Source of the DNA: an uncultured Clostridia bacterium | GTDB lineage: Bacteria > Bacillota > Clostridia > Christensenellales > UBA1242 | DNA length: 64,000 nt | Reading direction: 5' to 3' | NCBI GenBank assembly: GCA_948434855.1 | Contig: CAOJFR010000002.1 | Coordinates: 21,195-85,194, forward strand | Shown: in pieces, positions 17,748 to 59,234 of the stretch | Layout: every line of letters begins with the position of its first letter | Numbering within the stretch: position 1 is the stretch's first letter | Translations under genes and position numbers: made by a program | The notes under the pieces: generated by a model | The model's database searches: none | Told to the model about the DNA's origin: nothing | The model's input: only the letters and a program-made list of their open reading frames with translations

Positions 17748-19062
17748 GTTTCAGTTGTTTTTAAAAAAGCATATAGCTTTGTTTATTGTAATAGTAATCC
17801 TGCTAGTGTTCCCAGTCAGTCTGTCAAGTCAAGCCAAGCTAAGCATGAGAATAATTGTAACAGGCCTTGCAATAGATAAAAATGAAAATGAATACGAAGT
17901 CACTGCTCAGGTAGTAAAGTCCACTCCAGGAACAGAGTCCCCAGGCACAAGTGCCAGCATAGACTTTATTTCAGAAAAGGGAGAAACCGTCTCACGAGCA
18001 CTTTCAAAACTAATGTATAGAACAGGAAAGGTGTCAGCGTTTTCCCACACAAGTTTTGTGGTCATGAGTGAAGATCTCGCCAAAGAGGATGCAACATCTT
18101 GCCTAGACATTTTCATCAGAGACAAAATCATTCGCAACTCAGCAATGGTACTCTTTTCAGAAGGCAGGGCCAGCGAAGAAATTCAAAAGACAAAAAACGT
18201 AGAGCTTTCCGTTGGGTTAGGTTTGCAAAAAGTATTCTTGTTCAAGCAGGAAGAGAGTGATGGCTTAATGACAACAGTCCTAGAGTTTTTAAATAGAACA
18301 AAAATGCATGGTAAAACTGCATTTGCAAGTGTCCTTAGCCTTAGCAGCAATGAAGAGGGAATGTCAGGTTCGTCAGGCGAAGGCGAACAAAACTCGTCAG
18401 AAAGCTCTGGTGGAGAAAACGCCAGTGGCGGGTCAGAGGGTGCCAGTGGTGGCTCCACTGGTGGCTCCGGAAGCAGTGCAGGTGGCGGGTCAGGTTCCGC
18501 CGGCGGAAGCTCTGGCAGTTCCTCTGTATATTTTCAGGGTAATGCTCCAGTAATGGTTTTTGTAGATGGAAAACTCGCTGGAAAAATCACTGATGAAGAA
18601 GAGATTTTAGGGTTCATGCTTTCAAATAAAAAAACAAAAAGGGCAACCATTGCGGTAGAAAACATAAAATTTCCGGGGCTAGAGGATGCAAAGGTGTCAA
18701 TAAATATTAAAGGAAAAACAGAGAGCATTTGTGTTCGTTTTGAAAATGAAATCCCGTGCGTAGATGTAAAGATAAAAATAAAAGACTCTGAGATAATAGA
18801 AATTGTTAGCAAAGCAAAGCATTCAGACACCTTTAATGAAAAATATGATGCCATAGAGCAAGCAATGATAAAACAAGTCACAGCTGCCATTTCAAAAGCC
18901 TTTGAAAAATCAAAAACGCTTAAGGCAGATATGTTTAGTGCCTATGAGCACGCTTACAAATATCATTATAACACTCTAAAAAGGTACTATGATTCGCCAG
19001 AAGAGTTTATCTCACAGCTAAAGCTAAATATTAGTGTAGAGGTTCAAAAACTAGACTTTTAA
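17740..19062 (+). CDS. Ger(x)C-family germination protein with internal Gly/Ser-rich insertion
   Basis: 440-aa ORF overlapping the B subunit by 8 nt; position and length fit the C subunit; N-terminal TM/signal segment but no lipobox Cys. Confidence 0.7.
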   Translation: MNKFQLFLKKHIALFIVIVILLVFPVSLSSQAKLSMRIIVTGLAIDKNENEYEVTAQVVKSTPGTESPGTSASIDFISEKGETVSRALSKLMYRTGKVSAFSHTSFVVMSEDLAKEDATSCLDIFIRDKIIRNSAMVLFSEGRASEEIQKTKNVELSVGLGLQKVFLFKQEESDGLMTTVLEFLNRTKMHGKTAFASVLSLSSNEEGMSGSSGEGEQNSSESSGGENASGGSEGASGGSTGGSGSSAGGGSGSAGGSSGSSSVYFQGNAPVMVFVDGKLAGKITDEEEILGFMLSNKKTKRATIAVENIKFPGLEDAKVSINIKGKTESICVRFENEIPCVDVKIKIKDSEIIEIVSKAKHSDTFNEKYDAIEQAMIKQVTAAISKAFEKSKTLKADMFSAYEHAYKYHYNTLKRYYDSPEEFISQLKLNISVEVQKLDF

Positions 19063-53982: not shown

Positions 53983-54513
53983 TTAACCTCTTTTTGTGAA
54001 TGGAACAAAAAAACCAGACATATTCACACCTTCATTTTCAAGTAGCATAACTTTTTTGTCAATTCCGCCAGCATATCCAGTTAAGTTTCCATTTGCTCCA
54101 ACAACTCTGTGGCAGGGAATAATTATTGATATAGGGTTGTGTCCAACTGCTCCGCCAACTGCCTGTGCAGAAACTTTTTTTCCAGTCTTACACTCAATTT
54201 GTTTTGCAATTTCGCCATAGGTGATTGTTTTTCCAAATGGAATGTTTTGCATAACTTTGCAAACACTTTCACGAAAAGCCGAGATATTTTTAAGTAACAA
54301 TTTCGGTGTCCAGTCTGGACACTTACCAGAAAAATAAATATTTAGCCAGTTTTTGGTTTCTTTAAGTATTGGCAAGTCCTTAAAAATAAAATCAGATTTA
54401 TCAAACTTACAAAAATGTTTTTGACCTTCAATCCAAAGTCCAATAAGAGATTCGCCATCGCTAGCCATGCCAATTTGCCCAACAGGCGAGTTGTAGTTAC
54501 TCACATATATCAT
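53983..54513 (-). CDS. ogt: Methylated-DNA--protein-cysteine methyltransferase
   Basis: Active site IIIPCHRVVG; start taken at MIYVSNYNSPVGQ, typical of this family (the ORF extends to 54549). Confidence 0.88.
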   Translation of the reverse strand: MIYVSNYNSPVGQIGMASDGESLIGLWIEGQKHFCKFDKSDFIFKDLPILKETKNWLNIYFSGKCPDWTPKLLLKNISAFRESVCKVMQNIPFGKTITYGEIAKQIECKTGKKVSAQAVGGAVGHNPISIIIPCHRVVGANGNLTGYAGGIDKKVMLLENEGVNMSGFFVPFTKRG

Positions 54514-54618
54514 AAAAAAAGTATAACACATTAAAAGCGAGTTTTGCAACTTTCTCCAATTAATTTCCTATTGCGCTACACTTGTTTAAATTTTTTGATA
54601 TCTTAAAATTATTTTAAG

Positions 54619-55116
54619 TTAAACTAACTCTTCAAAAGCATAAAAAATTTTATGTTTATCAATATAAGAGGTGTTTTCAAGCTTTTTAAATCCATGCTTA
54701 ATGAATAGGTTAATTGATGGAATATTGTTCTTAAAAATTATTACGCGTAGAATTTCAAAATTATTTTTCTTGGCAAAATCATAAACAAATTCTAAAGCTT
54801 TTTTGTCATAACCATGTCTTTGGAACTCTGGGGCAATTGCCAATCTGCTAATATACAAAAAATTTTTATTTTTAGACCAATTGATAACTTGATAATCAGG
54901 ATCATCAAGAGTTGTAAGAACAAAGCATCCAACTAGTCTATTATCATCTTTAATAAAAAACATTTCGCCGTTTTTTATGTCACTTTTTAACTCACAAAGA
55001 GGGTAAGAACCATTCTAAAAAATTCTAACAATATTATTATTTGGGTCGTTTAAAACTTTTTTATATAACTTTTTAACATTAGGATAATCCTTAGCATTTG
55101 CTTTTGTAATCTCCAT
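54619..55116 (-). pseudogene. GNAT N-acetyltransferase interrupted by one in-frame TAG
   Basis: The frame is continuous from ATG 55116 (MEITKANAKDYPNV...) to stop 54619, except for TAG at 55017-55015 (IVRIF*NGSYPL); the distal part has a GNAT core (RLAIAPEFQRHGYDKKALEF). Confidence 0.75.
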
Positions 55117-55348
55117 AAAAAACCTCAAATTTTAATAAGAACATTATATAACAAAATTAAAATGATGTATACAAAAATTTAAAAGTTCATAATTAAAAGC
55201 CAACTGAAATTATGAATGGCACGATTGAACTTAACTAAATATTAGAAATACATAACTGCTAAAAAGATAAATGAGAACTATTTAGTAAATTTTATAAAAT
55301 ATCATTTTATAAAGTTTTAAAAGTTAATATGTCTTTGTATGGTTTTAT

Positions 55349-55560
55349 AATGGTGGCGGTTCGAAATGCAAATTCGAACCTGTCCATAAAAATTTGAACC
55401 CCAACATTATCCATCAGCATTCTCAACAATATGGATCGAATACTCAATTCGAACAAGGGCGTAGGGAACCACAATTCGAACCTTCAAAGAAATTTTCCAA
55501 CCACATAGAATTTATAGACTACATTCCAACCCACGAGGTAATAACATACCGCCACCTATT
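55349..55560. other. Structured non-coding block (~210 nt) closed by a 9+3-bp helix; strand unknown
   Basis: GGTGGCGGT (55352-55360) pairs with ACCGCCACC (55548-55556), plus 3 more pairs past a 1-nt bulge; 8-bp hairpin GGTTCGAA-ATGCAAA-TTCGAACC; AATTCGAAC occurs three times (55371, 55446, 55473). Confidence 0.45.
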
Positions 55561-55612
55561 CGCTTATGGTTTTTATGTGGAGTAAAAATTTTAAAATATT
55601 ACTAATATTAAG

Positions 55613-55641
55613 TTGACAAGTATATTAAACATGATTATTAT
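55613..55641 (+). promoter_or_regulatory. Near-consensus sigma-A promoter of a short non-coding transcript
   Basis: TTGACA, 17-nt spacer, TATTAT. Confidence 0.65.
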
Positions 55642-55647
55642 TAAAGT

Positions 55648-55781
55648 ATGAAGTTAGCACTCAACTGATTTGTTTGCTAAAATAAACAATAAAGAGGTCA
55701 ATATATCGGGATAATTAAGTTTATATAGATTTGTATAAATAAAAAGAACAACACCGAGGTCGCCTCGGTGTTGTTTGTTTT
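55648..55781 (+). ncRNA. Candidate small RNA (~130 nt) delimited by promoter and a 13-bp terminator
   Basis: Terminator AACAACACCGAGG-TCG-CCTCGGTGTTGTT then TGTTTT (55747-55781); the only ORF is a 6-codon one (MKLALN). Confidence 0.5.
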
Positions 55782-55835
55782 AACCTAAAAATGAATTCTT
55801 TAGGCCTGAGAAACTTTGAGAATTCAAATGGGAGG

Positions 55836-55895
55836 TTGATAATGAAATGATCATTATATGCTAATATGTTAACACATTTGTCATTTCATTGTCAA
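55836..55895. repeat. 15-bp inverted repeat (14/15 match) spaced by 30 nt, upstream of the 305-aa gene
   Basis: TTGATAATGAAATGA (55836-55850) versus TCATTTCATTGTCAA (55881-55895); the single mismatch would be a G-U pair in plus-strand RNA. Confidence 0.8.
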
Positions 55896-56090
55896 CAATA
55901 TTTCTACAATTTTTATTAGCATAATTTGCAACTCTAATATAAATTGTTAAATATTTGAGGCAATGATTTTTTGTTTTTAGGTTTACTTCAAATTTTATTA
56001 AAGGAGAAGTAATATGAAAAAAGAGAATACAGAATAACAGAATAAAAACTACAAAAAGCTACAATTAAAATAAAAGTTAAGGAGACAAAA

Positions 56091-57008
56091 ATGGAAAAAG
56101 TAAAAGATTTACTAAATGTGCTAAAAAAATATGGAAACTATTCTTTATATTCAGCAAAGACAAATGTAAAGAACAAAAAAATTTATAAATACGATCAAGA
56201 GGTTAATAAAAAATTAGTTCTTGATAGGAAACTAGAAGTATTGGAACAGTTAAGCGAGTGTCCTATTTATGAATATGATGTTTATAGTATAGATAAAGAT
56301 ATTATTCAACAAATTAGCGTTGATAAAATAAATTGGTTTGACATTCAGAAATCAATTAACGAGTTAGACCCACAAAACTTAAATGAAATAAATCCTACTA
56401 TTATAAATAGATTAACTGATATGGACATATTGTTATTGGATTTAGAAGATGGCAGACAGGCATATATCATTAACAAACACATAACTATTGGTTCCGCTTT
56501 TAGAAATAAAACAATGTTTTCTAAAAAAACGTTACTTGCGGAAGACAATATTTATGCATTTAACGATTATCCAGATGTAGTAATTTTGGATAACAATTGC
56601 TATATCTTTAACGAAAATAAGTTTAATTCGATGTTTAATTTTAGAGAAAAAATAGATAAAAAGGTAGAAGGGTCAAAAGAGATAATAACGTCATGGCAAT
56701 TTATACAAGATGGCGAGATGTTTTATCAATATTGTTTAAAAAATTACAATACAAAAAGAGCAATAATAAAAGTCCTTGACAAAGATGGCGTTGATCTATT
56801 GACAACTTCTTCGCCTTCAACAATAAAGAAAAAATTGTTAAGCCATGATGAATTGGTTGATAAGTTAACTTTTGATCCGAATACAAGCAAACTATTAGTT
56901 AATGATGAAATTTGTGATTTAATATTAAAGATATTAACTAATAAGATAGGTCAGGACTTATTTACGGATAAGTTATTTGGTATGGGAGATGGCGATGAAG
57001 TTAATTAA
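56091..57008 (+). CDS. Hypothetical soluble protein (305 aa); candidate sensor/partner of a membrane defence pair (KwaB/DUF4868-like?)
   Basis: ATG after RBS AAGGAGA; no TM segments; its end overlaps the next gene by 14 nt. The family assignment is only a size, context and pattern impression. Confidence 0.8.
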   Translation: MEKVKDLLNVLKKYGNYSLYSAKTNVKNKKIYKYDQEVNKKLVLDRKLEVLEQLSECPIYEYDVYSIDKDIIQQISVDKINWFDIQKSINELDPQNLNEINPTIINRLTDMDILLLDLEDGRQAYIINKHITIGSAFRNKTMFSKKTLLAEDNIYAFNDYPDVVILDNNCYIFNENKFNSMFNFREKIDKKVEGSKEIITSWQFIQDGEMFYQYCLKNYNTKRAIIKVLDKDGVDLLTTSSPSTIKKKLLSHDELVDKLTFDPNTSKLLVNDEICDLILKILTNKIGQDLFTDKLFGMGDGDEVN

Positions 57009-57582
57009 GAAAATATTGTTATACTTAACAGCATTCAATCCTATGGTATTTTTGCTATTGTTATCGTCAATAATTCAAATTCAATTTTCTGACGAATTAT
57101 CTTGGAATAAGCAGAATATAATAGTGATTTCATCTTTTTTAATTTTTCTAATTATAACATTTATAATAGCAGTGATTTTCGTAAAAAAACCTTTAAGAAA
57201 CGATTCTTGCAAAGTGGTGTTAATAGAAGTTAAAAATCTAACAGATAGTTATTTCTTAGGTTATTTTGCTTTATTTGTCATGTTAGACTTGTCTTTTGAT
57301 TTAATGAGCTTGGAGAGTCTAATAATTCCGGCCATCTTGATTATAATAATTGGTGTAGTGTATATATCAAATGATTTATACTATATAAACCCTTTATTTA
57401 ATCTTTTTGGTTATAAATTTTTTGATATTAAATATCAAAAAAACAATGTAAATAAACAATATTCGGGAAGAATTTTTAGCAAAAATAACTTAGAAAAATA
57501 TATAGATGAAGAAATAGAAATGGATTATAGCATATATAATTTTAGCAAGCAAAGGAATGAGCTAAATAAAATTAAAAAATAA
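56995..57582 (+). CDS. Four-TM membrane protein (195 aa); candidate effector/anchor (KwaA-like?)
   Basis: ATG 56995 after GGGAGA. Four hydrophobic helices (LLYLTAFNPMVFLLLLSSII, IIVISSFLIFLIITFIIAVIFV, YFLGYFALFVMLDLSF, LIIPAILIIIIGVVYI), then a ~70-aa soluble tail. Confidence 0.8.
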   Translation: MKLIKKILLYLTAFNPMVFLLLLSSIIQIQFSDELSWNKQNIIVISSFLIFLIITFIIAVIFVKKPLRNDSCKVVLIEVKNLTDSYFLGYFALFVMLDLSFDLMSLESLIIPAILIIIIGVVYISNDLYYINPLFNLFGYKFFDIKYQKNNVNKQYSGRIFSKNNLEKYIDEEIEMDYSIYNFSKQRNELNKIKK

Positions 57583-57592
57583 AAACAAACAG

Positions 57593-57620
57593 AAATTGCC
57601 GTTATAGGCAATTTTTATTT
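57593..57620 (+). terminator. Rho-independent terminator
   Basis: AAATTGCC-GTTATA-GGCAATTT then TTATTT. Confidence 0.75.
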
Positions 57621-57673
57621 GTAAATTGTTGACTTTATTGCCGATATTGGCTATTCTTTTAATAGAATAAAGA

Positions 57674-58573
57674 ATGAGGTTTACGTTAATGAGATTTTTG
57701 ACAGCTAGCGAAATTGCTAAAAAGTGGAATATAAGTGAAAGGTCTGTTCGTAATTATTGTCGGCAAGGAAGGGTAAAAGGCGCTGAACTTAAAGGCAAAA
57801 CATGGATAATTCCTGAGGATGCTGAAAAACCAGAAAGGGTGGAACGTAAAGAGTTTAGTGATAATCCGCTTCTTAATAAATTGAAAGAAGAAAAAGATAT
57901 GGGGCTCAAAGGTGGAATATTTGAAAAAACAATTGTTGCTTTAACATATAACTCCAATCATATAGAAGGAAGCAAATTAACAGAAGACCAAACAAGAATG
58001 ATATATCAAGTACAAGAAATTTATACTGGTGATCAAACAATTTCAGCAAATGATATACTAGAAACGATAAATCATTTTAAATGTGTAGATTTTATAATAG
58101 ATACGGCACTATGTAATTTGAGTGAAAGTTATATAAAGCGTTTACATTTTGAGCTTAAATATGGAACTTTTCATAGTCTTGCAATCAATGTTGGATTATA
58201 TAAAAATTTTCCAAATGAAGTTGGCGGAAATGAAACCTGTCCACCTGAAAAAGTTTCCGAAGAAATCAAAAAACTTTTAGATAACTATAATGCAAAACAG
58301 ACTAAAACTATTAATGACATAATTGAATTTCATAAAGAATTTGAAACAATCCATCCATTTCAAGATGGCAACGGAAGAGTAGGGCGGTTAATTATGTTTA
58401 AAGAATGTCTTGCCAACAATATAGTTCCATTCATAATAGAGGACGAATTTAAGCTCTACTACTATCGTGGCCTCAAAGAATGGAACACTGAGCGTGGCTA
58501 TCTAACTGATACTTGCCTCGCTGCCCAGGACAAATATAAAAAATGGCTAGAGTATTTTAAGATTAATTATTGA
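57674..58573 (+). CDS. Fic-family protein with N-terminal HTH and internal inhibitory-helix motif
   Basis: Fic motif HPFQDGNGRVGR (about 58352-58387); SNHIEG matches the (S/T)xxxE(G/N) inhibitory motif; N-terminal LTASEIAKKWNISERSVRNYCRQG HTH. Start is 57674 or 57689. Confidence 0.88.
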   Translation: MRFTLMRFLTASEIAKKWNISERSVRNYCRQGRVKGAELKGKTWIIPEDAEKPERVERKEFSDNPLLNKLKEEKDMGLKGGIFEKTIVALTYNSNHIEGSKLTEDQTRMIYQVQEIYTGDQTISANDILETINHFKCVDFIIDTALCNLSESYIKRLHFELKYGTFHSLAINVGLYKNFPNEVGGNETCPPEKVSEEIKKLLDNYNAKQTKTINDIIEFHKEFETIHPFQDGNGRVGRLIMFKECLANNIVPFIIEDEFKLYYYRGLKEWNTERGYLTDTCLAAQDKYKKWLEYFKINY

Positions 58574-58684: not shown

Positions 58685-58855
58685 ATGCATAATGAATTAT
58701 ATACAACAGAATATGATGTTGAGAAAATGTTTATAGAGGTTATTACTACAAATTGGTATAAATATAATAATTTATCAAGTTATGAAGAGCTTCTTGAAAA
58801 TTTTAGAAATAAGTTAAATCTTTTAAATAAAGATATCCTCAATGCAAAACCATAA
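58685..58855 (+). pseudogene. Truncated N-terminal fragment of a type I restriction enzyme R subunit (HsdR)-like gene
   Basis: 56 codons with RBS GGGAGA; TEYDVEKMFIEVITTNWYKYNNLSSYEELLENFRNKLNLLN resembles the HsdR N-terminal pattern; stops far short of a helicase core. Confidence 0.45.
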
Positions 58856-59145: not shown

Positions 59146-59234
59146 TGGCGGAGAGAGCGGGATTCGAACCCGCGCTACATTGCTGTACTACACCCTTAGC
59201 AGGGGCGCCTCTTCGGCCTCTTGAGTATCTCTCC
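59146..59234 (-). tRNA. tRNA-Ser (anticodon GCU), CCA encoded
   Basis: Acceptor GGAGAGA/TCTCTCC, then G and CCA; anticodon loop CTGCTAA; long variable arm; T-arm GCGGG-TTCGAAT-CCCGC. Confidence 0.95.

Follow-up and report, generated by a model that had tools for sequence, protein, structure and literature searches.

In serine integrases, the 9-bp motif of the zinc-ribbon domain (ZD) occupies positions 16-24 of the attachment site of the element (attP) and positions 11-19 of the target site (attB), a shift of 5 bp (PMC3783163, in the part of its text available to us). According to the accessible text of the 2014 Islander paper (PMC4383910), no serine recombinase is known to have a tRNA gene as its target. 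The accessible portion of a further source describes SSV-type tyrosine integrases, in which attP lies within the open reading frame (ORF) of the integrase, the target is a tRNA gene and the integrase gene is split on integration, as 'so far restricted to archaea' (PMC7253208). In the mycobacteriophages BPs and Brujita, which also target a tRNA gene, attP lies in the repressor gene and integration removes a C-terminal degradation tag, as stated in the available excerpt of PMC3694055. Here, we analysed a block at positions 55349-55560 of a 64,000-nucleotide stretch of DNA (the window, whose positions are used throughout) from an uncultured Clostridia bacterium (GenBank assembly GCA_948434855.1, contig CAOJFR010000002.1), which a first-pass annotation made from the letters alone had described as a GC-enriched, non-coding element packed with TTCGAA-centred repeats. 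In our judgement this block is very probably the P'-side relic of the attachment site of an island that encodes a large serine recombinase (LSR) and uses a tRNA-Ser gene as attB.

The block appears to combine a P' arm that mimics the T-loop of a tRNA with the detached tail of the LSR, left over at the end of a mobile defence island. Homology to relatives, the junctions found there, the spacing of the motifs, a coding signature and one complete island in a related genome form the observed basis of this reading. The odd, RNA-like appearance of the block is thereby accounted for: the block would be the scar left by a mobile defence island, marking its left border at 55352. The locus as such is ordinary; what is unusual is the LSR family to which it goes back, a variant of serine-integrase islands.

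The recombinase, its tail and the tRNA-Ser target

The block is single-copy in its own genome. A DNA search of relatives, which the first-pass annotation had proposed, recovered it in six of 60 related genomes, sometimes twice, with insertions of 116-260 nt between its halves. All of those copies have an open frame on the plus strand that ends in ...FSNHI(E/K)FIDYIPT(H/R)E(V/I)ITYRHLFAYGFYVE and a stop codon, and the homology among them ends at that stop. The corresponding frame of the window comprises 85 sense codons on the plus strand (55328-55582, stop at 55583-55585) and contains no ATG; its only start-like codon is the TTG at 55394, which is not preceded by a ribosome-binding site. The annotation had seen an open frame crossing the block and set it aside as lacking both signals; they are indeed lacking, yet the frame is real coding sequence, i.e. 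the detached C-terminal tail of an LSR ORF, homologous to residues ~520-646 of the protein P0154.

Searching proteins with the tail returned 135 unnamed predicted proteins of 46-147 aa with heterogeneous N-termini, and among longer proteins 63 matches, three with recombinase domains (P0154, P0176 and P0183), all ending in the tail. P0154 (646 aa) is a complete LSR with Resolvase, Recombinase and Zn_ribbon domains and runs from ...KKLPFEFKRQLFGG straight into the tail. Among 35 tail loci from species-representative genomes, all of them uncultured gut Clostridia or Christensenellales-type bins, the LSR is contiguous with the tail at three (L048, L050 and L059) and an N-terminal piece of it is fused to the tail at two (L046 and L052), the rest consisting of the tail alone. 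Where unrelated sequence precedes the tail, the junction is always at a Gly-Gly (GGNGG) just ahead of a TTCGAA unit; this Gly-Gly is invariant in all ten aligned LSRs, and the core at this point comes after all three domains of the enzyme (catalytic, recombinase and zinc-ribbon).

A complete island is found in the related genome G426. Its attL core lies at 720 and its attR core at 18414 of the oriented locus, 17,694 nt apart on one strand, with the tail at one end and the LSR followed by an antisense tRNA-Ser(UGA) at the other, and when both ends were joined in silico at the core a 625-aa in-frame ORF resulted that ends in the tail motif. Between these ends the island encodes DUF1848, HTH-Fic, a 1024-aa protein, DUF6339 and a C5/Eco57I-type methylase in addition to the LSR. 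Tail and LSR are 15-21 kb apart on the same strand in four genomes (G016, G426, G428 and G429); the right junctions of the islands in G016, G428 and G429 go to other partners, which suggests tandem or decayed arrays. The joined form exists as well: at locus L102 (13.9 kb) LSR and tail are a single 679-aa ORF, the upstream gene is the one at the right end of the G426 island and the downstream gene (94% aa identity) is one near the left end of the G429 island, a gene order that appears to be a circular permutation of the integrated one. In G007, no assembly overlap links contig C26, which holds the tail, to contig C27, which holds the LSR and tRNA-Ser. The cargo slot beside the tail varies by genome and contains Kiwa, DUF1848, DUF6119, RnlAB or methylase systems, making the slot next to the tail a cargo hotspot for defence genes.

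The target is apparent from the other side of the core. In G007 and G026 the LSR frame continues past TGGCGG into a complete antisense tRNA-Ser(UGA) gene, and TGGCGG is the antisense of the tRNA CCA, the discriminator base and the last two acceptor bases, so that the tRNA is regenerated by the element. A pattern for the last 23 nt of the LSR (the P arm) occurs in 54 of 400 family genomes, with 60 matches versus one for the reversed control. We fetched 30 of these loci, 27 of which are true P arms; 14 of the 27 abut a complete antisense tRNA-Ser (eight UGA, four GCU, one GGA and one CGA) and two more a partial one. The TGGCGG core is common to the LSR-tRNA junctions, the tail junctions and both ends of the G426 island. 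The aligned site in the window is GGTGG (55352-55356, plus strand), which matches the GGCGG/TGGCGG core of the relatives codon for codon and is where homology to them starts. The position at the edge of an island, which the annotation had noted, holds. At locus L098 a P arm is followed by CTGGTGG and then by a tail nearly identical to that of the window.

Tail and tRNA differ in the distance from the core to the shared motif. Counted from the base after the core, 16 antisense-tRNA junctions have TTYGAAC beginning at +12, and TTCGAAC begins at +17 in each of 12 tail junctions, among which the window is counted with its core GGTGG at 55352-55356, as the codon-level alignment requires. Likewise, the 9-bp sequence ATTCGAACC is at +16 to +24 in the tail versus +11 to +19 in the tRNA, that is, 5 nt further from the core in the tail. 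On the plus strand of the window the putative P' half-site covers 55357-55380, with TTCGAA at 55360-55365 and the T-loop-like ATTCGAACC at 55372-55380, and coincides with the 8-bp hairpin described below. Two further units follow it on the same strand: unit B (55433-55454; GGATCGAAT...AATTCGAAC) is a degenerate direct copy with 73% identity to 55358-55379 and serves as the junction in some relatives, and unit C (55457-55482; GGG CGTAGGGAACCACAATTCGAACC), a second P'-type half-site, is the junction unit in G426, G428, L059 and G007. The actual junction unit (A, B or C) thus varies among islands; close to the core, the likeness is to antisense tRNA-Ser(UGA) for unit A and to tRNA-Ser(GCU) for unit C. 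The T-loop likeness and the link to tRNA-Ser that the first-pass annotation had pointed out hold: the LSRs of relatives abut antisense tRNA-Ser, and ATTCGAACC copies the T-loop. Its suggestion of a protein-binding array of palindromic TTCGAA sites is supported in a modified form: constraint is seen at the DNA level, and the units would be attP-type (P') half-sites, bound by an LSR that uses tRNA-Ser as attB.

We propose that the crossover core TGGCGG lies inside the LSR's own frame, where it would be translated as the invariant Gly-Gly. The joined (attP) form would be a single ORF leading from the LSR through the core into a tail in which units rich in TTCGAA come first, then a linker that varies and finally 31 conserved residues. 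On integration this ORF would be parted: the LSR would stay by the tRNA gene (attR) and read into the antisense tRNA, and the start-less tail would come to lie at the opposite island end (attL), with defence cargo that can be exchanged behind it. Recognition at the DNA level would be the role of the TTCGAA units, with ATTCGAACC copying the T-loop 5 bp further out, as the ZD motif does in attP versus attB. Because the crossover site is inside the LSR ORF, integration would also swap the C-terminus of the enzyme. More tentatively, and with somewhat less than even confidence, we suggest a family of LSRs in gut Clostridia that read a tRNA-Ser attB via its T-loop, cross over within their own ORF and carry a ~100-residue tail with the 31-residue module when free and an antisense-tRNA extension when integrated, a difference that might serve as a sensor of the integration state for stability or directionality; LSR-less islands in which just the tail or the P arm of ~40 nt is left could perhaps be mobilised in trans. 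If true, this would be a bacterial serine-recombinase counterpart of the archaeal 'suicidal' integrases and of integration-dependent immunity.

Constraint on the tail and competing readings

The G+C content of the block (34-36.5%) is indeed higher than that of its AT-rich flanks (20-26%), as had been noted; it is, however, ordinary for coding DNA in this genome (32.6% overall), which makes the label 'non-coding' wrong, as do the open frame on the plus strand and a coding pattern of substitutions. Over the last 31 codons, a comparison of the window with seven copies recovered by DNA search gave 18, 9 and 83 differences at codon positions 1, 2 and 3, with 77 synonymous versus 22 nonsynonymous changes; a decayed eighth copy (G029) is outside this sum and the copy of G018 is partly decayed. 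A set of 25 distinct copies gave 3181 synonymous versus 679 nonsynonymous changes over 300 pairs, although these copies were selected by a peptide pattern, which favours conservation. This conserved C-terminal module (KFSNHIEFIDYIPTHEVITYRHLFAYGFYVE; 55490-55582 in the window, plus strand) has 18 invariant columns and is under purifying selection. As the frame is real coding sequence, a remnant of a coding gene, the outcome that the annotation had itself listed against its description, is partly what was found.

The upstream region with the units behaves differently: changes occur at all codon positions and nonsynonymous ones dominate (e.g. 25 versus 5 synonymous), while the frame stays open and TTCGAA is kept. 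In the tails TTCGAA occurs 59 times in 8,028 nt versus 2.1 expected, in two codon phases, 42 times as TTC GAA (Phe-Glu) and 17 times as xxT TCG AAx (Ser-Lys/Asn), and it overrides the codon bias, TTC being used in 42 of 57 Phe-Glu pairs versus 16% genome-wide and TCG for Ser in nine of 16 cases versus 4.3%. With the third-position pattern in the 3' third and the persistence of TTCGAA in the unit region, the 3' third of the tail is constrained as protein and the 5' two-thirds as DNA. The clustering that had been noticed in the window is beyond chance, too. The sequence AATTCGAAC occurs at 55371, 55446 and 55473, its copies reading (C/A)AATTCGAAC, i.e. three times versus 0.46 expected, a number reached in two of 100 shuffles, and a related unit, GGATCGAAT, is found at 55433. 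TTCGAA itself is present only five times in the 64 kb versus 14.9 expected, four times in the block and once in the T-loop of the tRNA-Ser at 59146-59234; across the 1.23-Mb assembly there are 23 copies versus 261 expected, 11 of the 23 within tRNA genes, with half of the copies in T-loops. This genome strongly avoids other CG-centred palindromes as well (ATCGAT 13 versus 120, TACGTA 17 versus 60), which suggests past or present restriction pressure.

All repeats, helices and coordinates listed by the first-pass annotation are present in the sequence. A repeat search of the window returned a 9-bp inverted pair of 100% complementarity, GGTGGCGGT (55352-55360) with ACCGCCACC (55548-55556), and an 8-bp inverted repeat with a 7-nt loop, GGTTCGAA (55358-55365) with TTCGAACC (55373-55380), which overlaps the long helix as stated; the direct repeat TTCCAACC occurs in two copies (55495 and 55524), and the pair ATCCAT/ATGGAT is visible in the block. 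The perfect helix and hairpin, together with a minus strand that folds to -61.1 kcal/mol and a G+C content above the flanks, would suit a non-coding RNA of either strand whose structure is closed by the long-range helix, but we give this reading next to no credence. Rfam models matched neither strand of 54000-57000 at thresholds up to E=1, and at the gathering threshold the only matches in the window are a SAM riboswitch and the tRNA-Ser. The fold z-scores are -1.77 for the plus and -2.05 for the minus strand, with 10 and 7 of 200 shuffles folding equally well. Both homologous segments are present in 11 copies; of these, only the window forms nine of nine pairs of the long helix, the ten others reaching at most five Watson-Crick pairs, so the closing helix that had been proposed is perfect here and not conserved. 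Its 3' arm lies in the C-terminal module as Tyr-Arg-His-Leu codons and varies synonymously (CGC to AGG in G026), in keeping with the third-position pattern of a protein-coding sequence; in G018 both hairpin arms carry TTCAAA in place of TTCGAA, a change that disrupts the pairing and does not compensate, and the insertions in the middle of the block differ among copies. On the lack of an Rfam match, the weak z-scores, the unconserved helix, the non-compensatory changes and the third-position variation, a novel structured RNA was rejected. Only slightly better placed, and still very unlikely, is a stack of decayed tRNA 3'-end copies from successive integrations, which would account for the T-loop-like motif, for the several units in a tail (about six at most, in P0121 and P0136) and for the resemblance of units A and C to different tRNA-Ser genes near the core. 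The spacing of the units is that of attP (+17) and not that of the tRNA (+12), so they are not decayed tRNA 3' ends and this proposal of the annotation stands only insofar as the block is att-related; furthermore, acceptor and T-stem complementarity is not kept, neither ARAGORN nor Rfam shows a tRNA-like element at the block, and in the joined form the units travel with the recombinase ORF. A tmRNA or tRNA-like element on the minus strand was also considered and rejected, ARAGORN finding none at the block and the genome's tmRNA being on contig C10.

Two further explanations accept the coding sequence or the attachment site. The block might be an independent small protein gene, e.g. one that starts at TTG 55394 (63 aa), with an autonomous C-terminal module, perhaps a recombination directionality factor or a defence-regulating factor, and an incidental fusion to the recombinase. 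Purifying selection on the module, its presence in the 135 small predicted proteins, a promoter-like TTAATA-16-TATAAT just upstream (55324-55351, plus strand, in the left flank) and the fact that most genomic copies are unattached to a recombinase are in favour of such a gene. We nevertheless find it improbable, as neither start codon nor N-terminus is conserved, the predicted N-termini being placed arbitrarily within the repeat units or lying in unrelated sequence, the TTG lacks a ribosome-binding site, the frame is open back to the core despite the absence of amino-acid constraint on the unit region, and the tail is in frame with the recombinase in seven of the eight cases that have a recombinase end; the tail would instead be translated only as a fusion. 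A different history of the same parts is rather unlikely, less so than an independent gene: the block could be a fossil attP whose LSR gene and P arm were lost by deletion or island exchange, instead of an attL formed here by integration. P arms without an LSR are common (13 of 27, plus L039, L051 and L098), the nearby tRNA-Ser has no attR and the island is truncated, as the restriction-enzyme fragment at 58685-58855 indicates. Yet the core is the exact point at which homology begins, just as it is in G426, G428, L036 and L062 at their attL junctions, a point where a random deletion would rarely end, and the left flank is weakly like the attL flanks of G426 and G428. This flank (55330-55351, plus strand) has no homology to relatives, and we mention with reserve that it may be a former tRNA-trailer (B) arm, its TTTGTATGG resembling TTCGTATGA in those two genomes. 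In our reading, the copy in the window probably arose by integration and is the attL end of an island from which the LSR end was lost later, with the deletion fossil as the alternative.

Several observations weigh against our reading of the block as an attL relic of a tRNA-Ser island, or at least limit it. The flank of the tRNA-Ser(GCU) in the window has neither a P arm nor homology to the LSR 3' end, i.e. there is no attR in the window, and with this absence at 59146 the copy may go back to integration or to deletion. The core of the window is GGTGG instead of GGCGG. No empty-site genome was found, the Ogt neighbour being at most 55% identical and present in four of 20 genomes; the genus is too divergent for the comparison by which the annotation had hoped to recognise an attL. 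In all ten genomes with LSR-tRNA-Ser junctions the tail was not found, and nine P arms run into a different conserved P' arm, the ORF ending 6-7 codons after the Gly-Gly; both findings make the tail an optional part of the LSR family. Thirteen of the 27 P arms have no LSR ORF upstream, the tail of L098 is out of frame and many copies are decayed. At L046 and L052 the LSR N-terminus is joined directly to the tail. The contig of L102 has no terminal overlap and its circularity is therefore not demonstrable, and among IMG/VR viral contigs none of 104 pattern matches was confirmed.

Three of these classes of loci have features of their own. The second partner arm, found at L073, L075, L076, L079, L089, L092-L094 and L101, has a consensus near ACAAACCGAYANCCAATCCTAACA with ATCCTAACA at an attP-type distance, and is either an attP that lacks the tail or the point where two tandem islands meet. 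At L071, L074, L081, L088, L096 and other loci, ~40 nt of the LSR 3' end (the P arm) stand beside tRNA-Ser with no LSR ORF upstream; they could be either scars or the attR of LSR-less islands that are mobilisable in trans. At L052 (G026:C16) and L046, the first ~50 or ~150 LSR codons are in frame with the tail and the rest is skipped, the junction of L052 reading ...DRALSG and then SSNSQFEP, for which an internal deletion or recombination at a pseudo-site are possible origins; that the LSR had inverted a segment of the cargo was considered as another.

On its own, the tail has no confident predicted fold (mean pLDDT 50). It had no match in Pfam, PHROGs, NCBIfam or PDB sequences (best PDB E 0.94), and the block gave one weak 35-nt match in a phage collection and none in a plasmid collection.

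The island in the window and its genome

To the right of the tail, the window continues with genes in the order seen at the left end of the G426 island, tail, cargo slot and HTH-Fic being collinear. The cargo slot (56091-57582) is occupied by a Kiwa-type pair on the plus strand, in which a KwaB-like gene (56091-57008), recognised weakly (PADLOC E about 3e-4, Pfam 3.8e-09), overlaps by 32 nt a clear KwaA (56977-57582, 2.7e-19). The HTH-Fic gene, of the candidate defence family PDC-S04 (57568-58573, ORF 57674-58573, plus strand; 9.5e-100), has 77% DNA identity over 1017 nt to that of G426, and in G005, G007 and G026, too, the cargo slot is followed by the 5' region of this Fic gene. Next comes a 56-codon N-terminal fragment of a type I restriction enzyme (58685-58855, plus strand), which matches positions 3-51 of a 976-position profile (E 1.6e-05); this stump appears to mark a truncation or deletion of the island. 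A 69-codon ORF and a terminator separate it from the tRNA-Ser(GCU) on the minus strand (59146-59234), the only tRNA that ARAGORN reports in the window, whose antisense 3' end, TGGCGG AGAGAGCGGGATTCGAACCC, would be a B'-type half-site.

An LSR was not found in the window's genome (assembly 95.5% complete): P0154 matches the tail only, and PF00239 and PF07508 have no matches. In the absence of a serine recombinase the block is an orphan relic beside the Kiwa and Fic genes and, with no P arm at the tRNA-Ser(GCU) and a truncated island, it is most likely inert. The left flank of the block and the flank of this tRNA-Ser showed no informative homology to the fetched loci. One other tRNA-Ser was found in the assembly (UGA, G000:C44:45-132); as the contig ends 44 nt away from it, the assembly lacks its 3' flank, which could be a second attachment site.

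The gap between the tail and the Kiwa pair (55586-56090) holds no ORF of at least 40 aa. A promoter close to the consensus, TTGACA-17-TATTAT (55613-55641), is followed there by a strong bidirectional terminator whose stem has 13 bp (55747-55775), and the two may delimit a small transcript within 55594-55780; 55594-55727 and the sequence behind the G429 tail share 79% identity. On the left of the block, a GNAT acetyltransferase gene on the minus strand (54619-55116) has an in-frame TAG ~33 codons after its ATG (RIF*NGSYP) and is a pseudogene or a split gene. An alternative genetic code, considered because of this TAG, was rejected, as table 11 fits the genome. Elsewhere in the window there is a SAM riboswitch (RF00162; 6605-6694, plus strand, 60.8 bits).

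Comparison with known integration systems

With the serine integrases A118/LI, Bxb1, phiC31 and SPbeta, the LSR family shares the set of Resolvase, Recombinase and zinc ribbon domains, and its sites are likewise short and simple, with imperfect inverted half-sites and a distal 9-bp motif that lies 5 bp further out in attP than in attB. Unlike known serine integrases, it has as attB the 3' end of tRNA-Ser genes with four anticodons, and the core is inside the LSR ORF, some members having a tail of 85-130 codons beyond it. We found no serine recombinase that targets a tRNA gene or has attP in its own ORF in a literature search that covered titles and the openings of abstracts, with subscription journals mostly outside its reach, which is not proof of absence. 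The relatives would thus show serine integrases targeting tRNA genes, in a class not known to do so in the accessible text of the 2014 survey (PMC4383910). Their short, defined sites, comprising a core and a T-loop motif with a 5-bp shift, add conserved natural landing sites, the 3' ends of tRNA-Ser genes, to the repertoire of serine integrases.

The likeness to the SSV-type 'suicidal' integrases, as far as these are described in the sources available to us, is considerable: attP is in the integrase ORF, the target is a tRNA gene, the pieces of the gene end up at opposite ends of the element and the att site is translated. Such a split is indeed seen in the LSR family, where the ends of the G426 island rejoin in frame and joined forms exist. 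The enzyme is, however, of the serine type and not a tyrosine recombinase inactivated by the split; in the SSV type, according to the same partial descriptions, the split inactivates the enzyme, whereas in the LSR family the catalytic and DNA-binding domains stay together and only the tail is detached. The relatives would therefore place attP inside an integrase ORF, an arrangement described as archaeal and tyrosine-type only in the accessible portion of PMC7253208, in a bacterial serine recombinase. BPs and Brujita, in the excerpt at hand, resemble the family in having attP in a coding sequence, a C-terminus that differs between the free and the integrated state and a tRNA gene as target; there, the split gene is a repressor, the integrase is of the tyrosine type and what is removed is a short degradation tag, whereas here the serine recombinase itself is split.

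Finally, the locus in the window is similar to the tRNA islands of the Islander type in that the island lies beside a tRNA gene and has a T-loop-like far end, with defence cargo in between. In Islander-type islands the far end is a displaced fragment of the tRNA, whereas that of the window would be an attP-type half-site with shifted spacing, and the recombinase, missing from the window's genome, is of the serine type.

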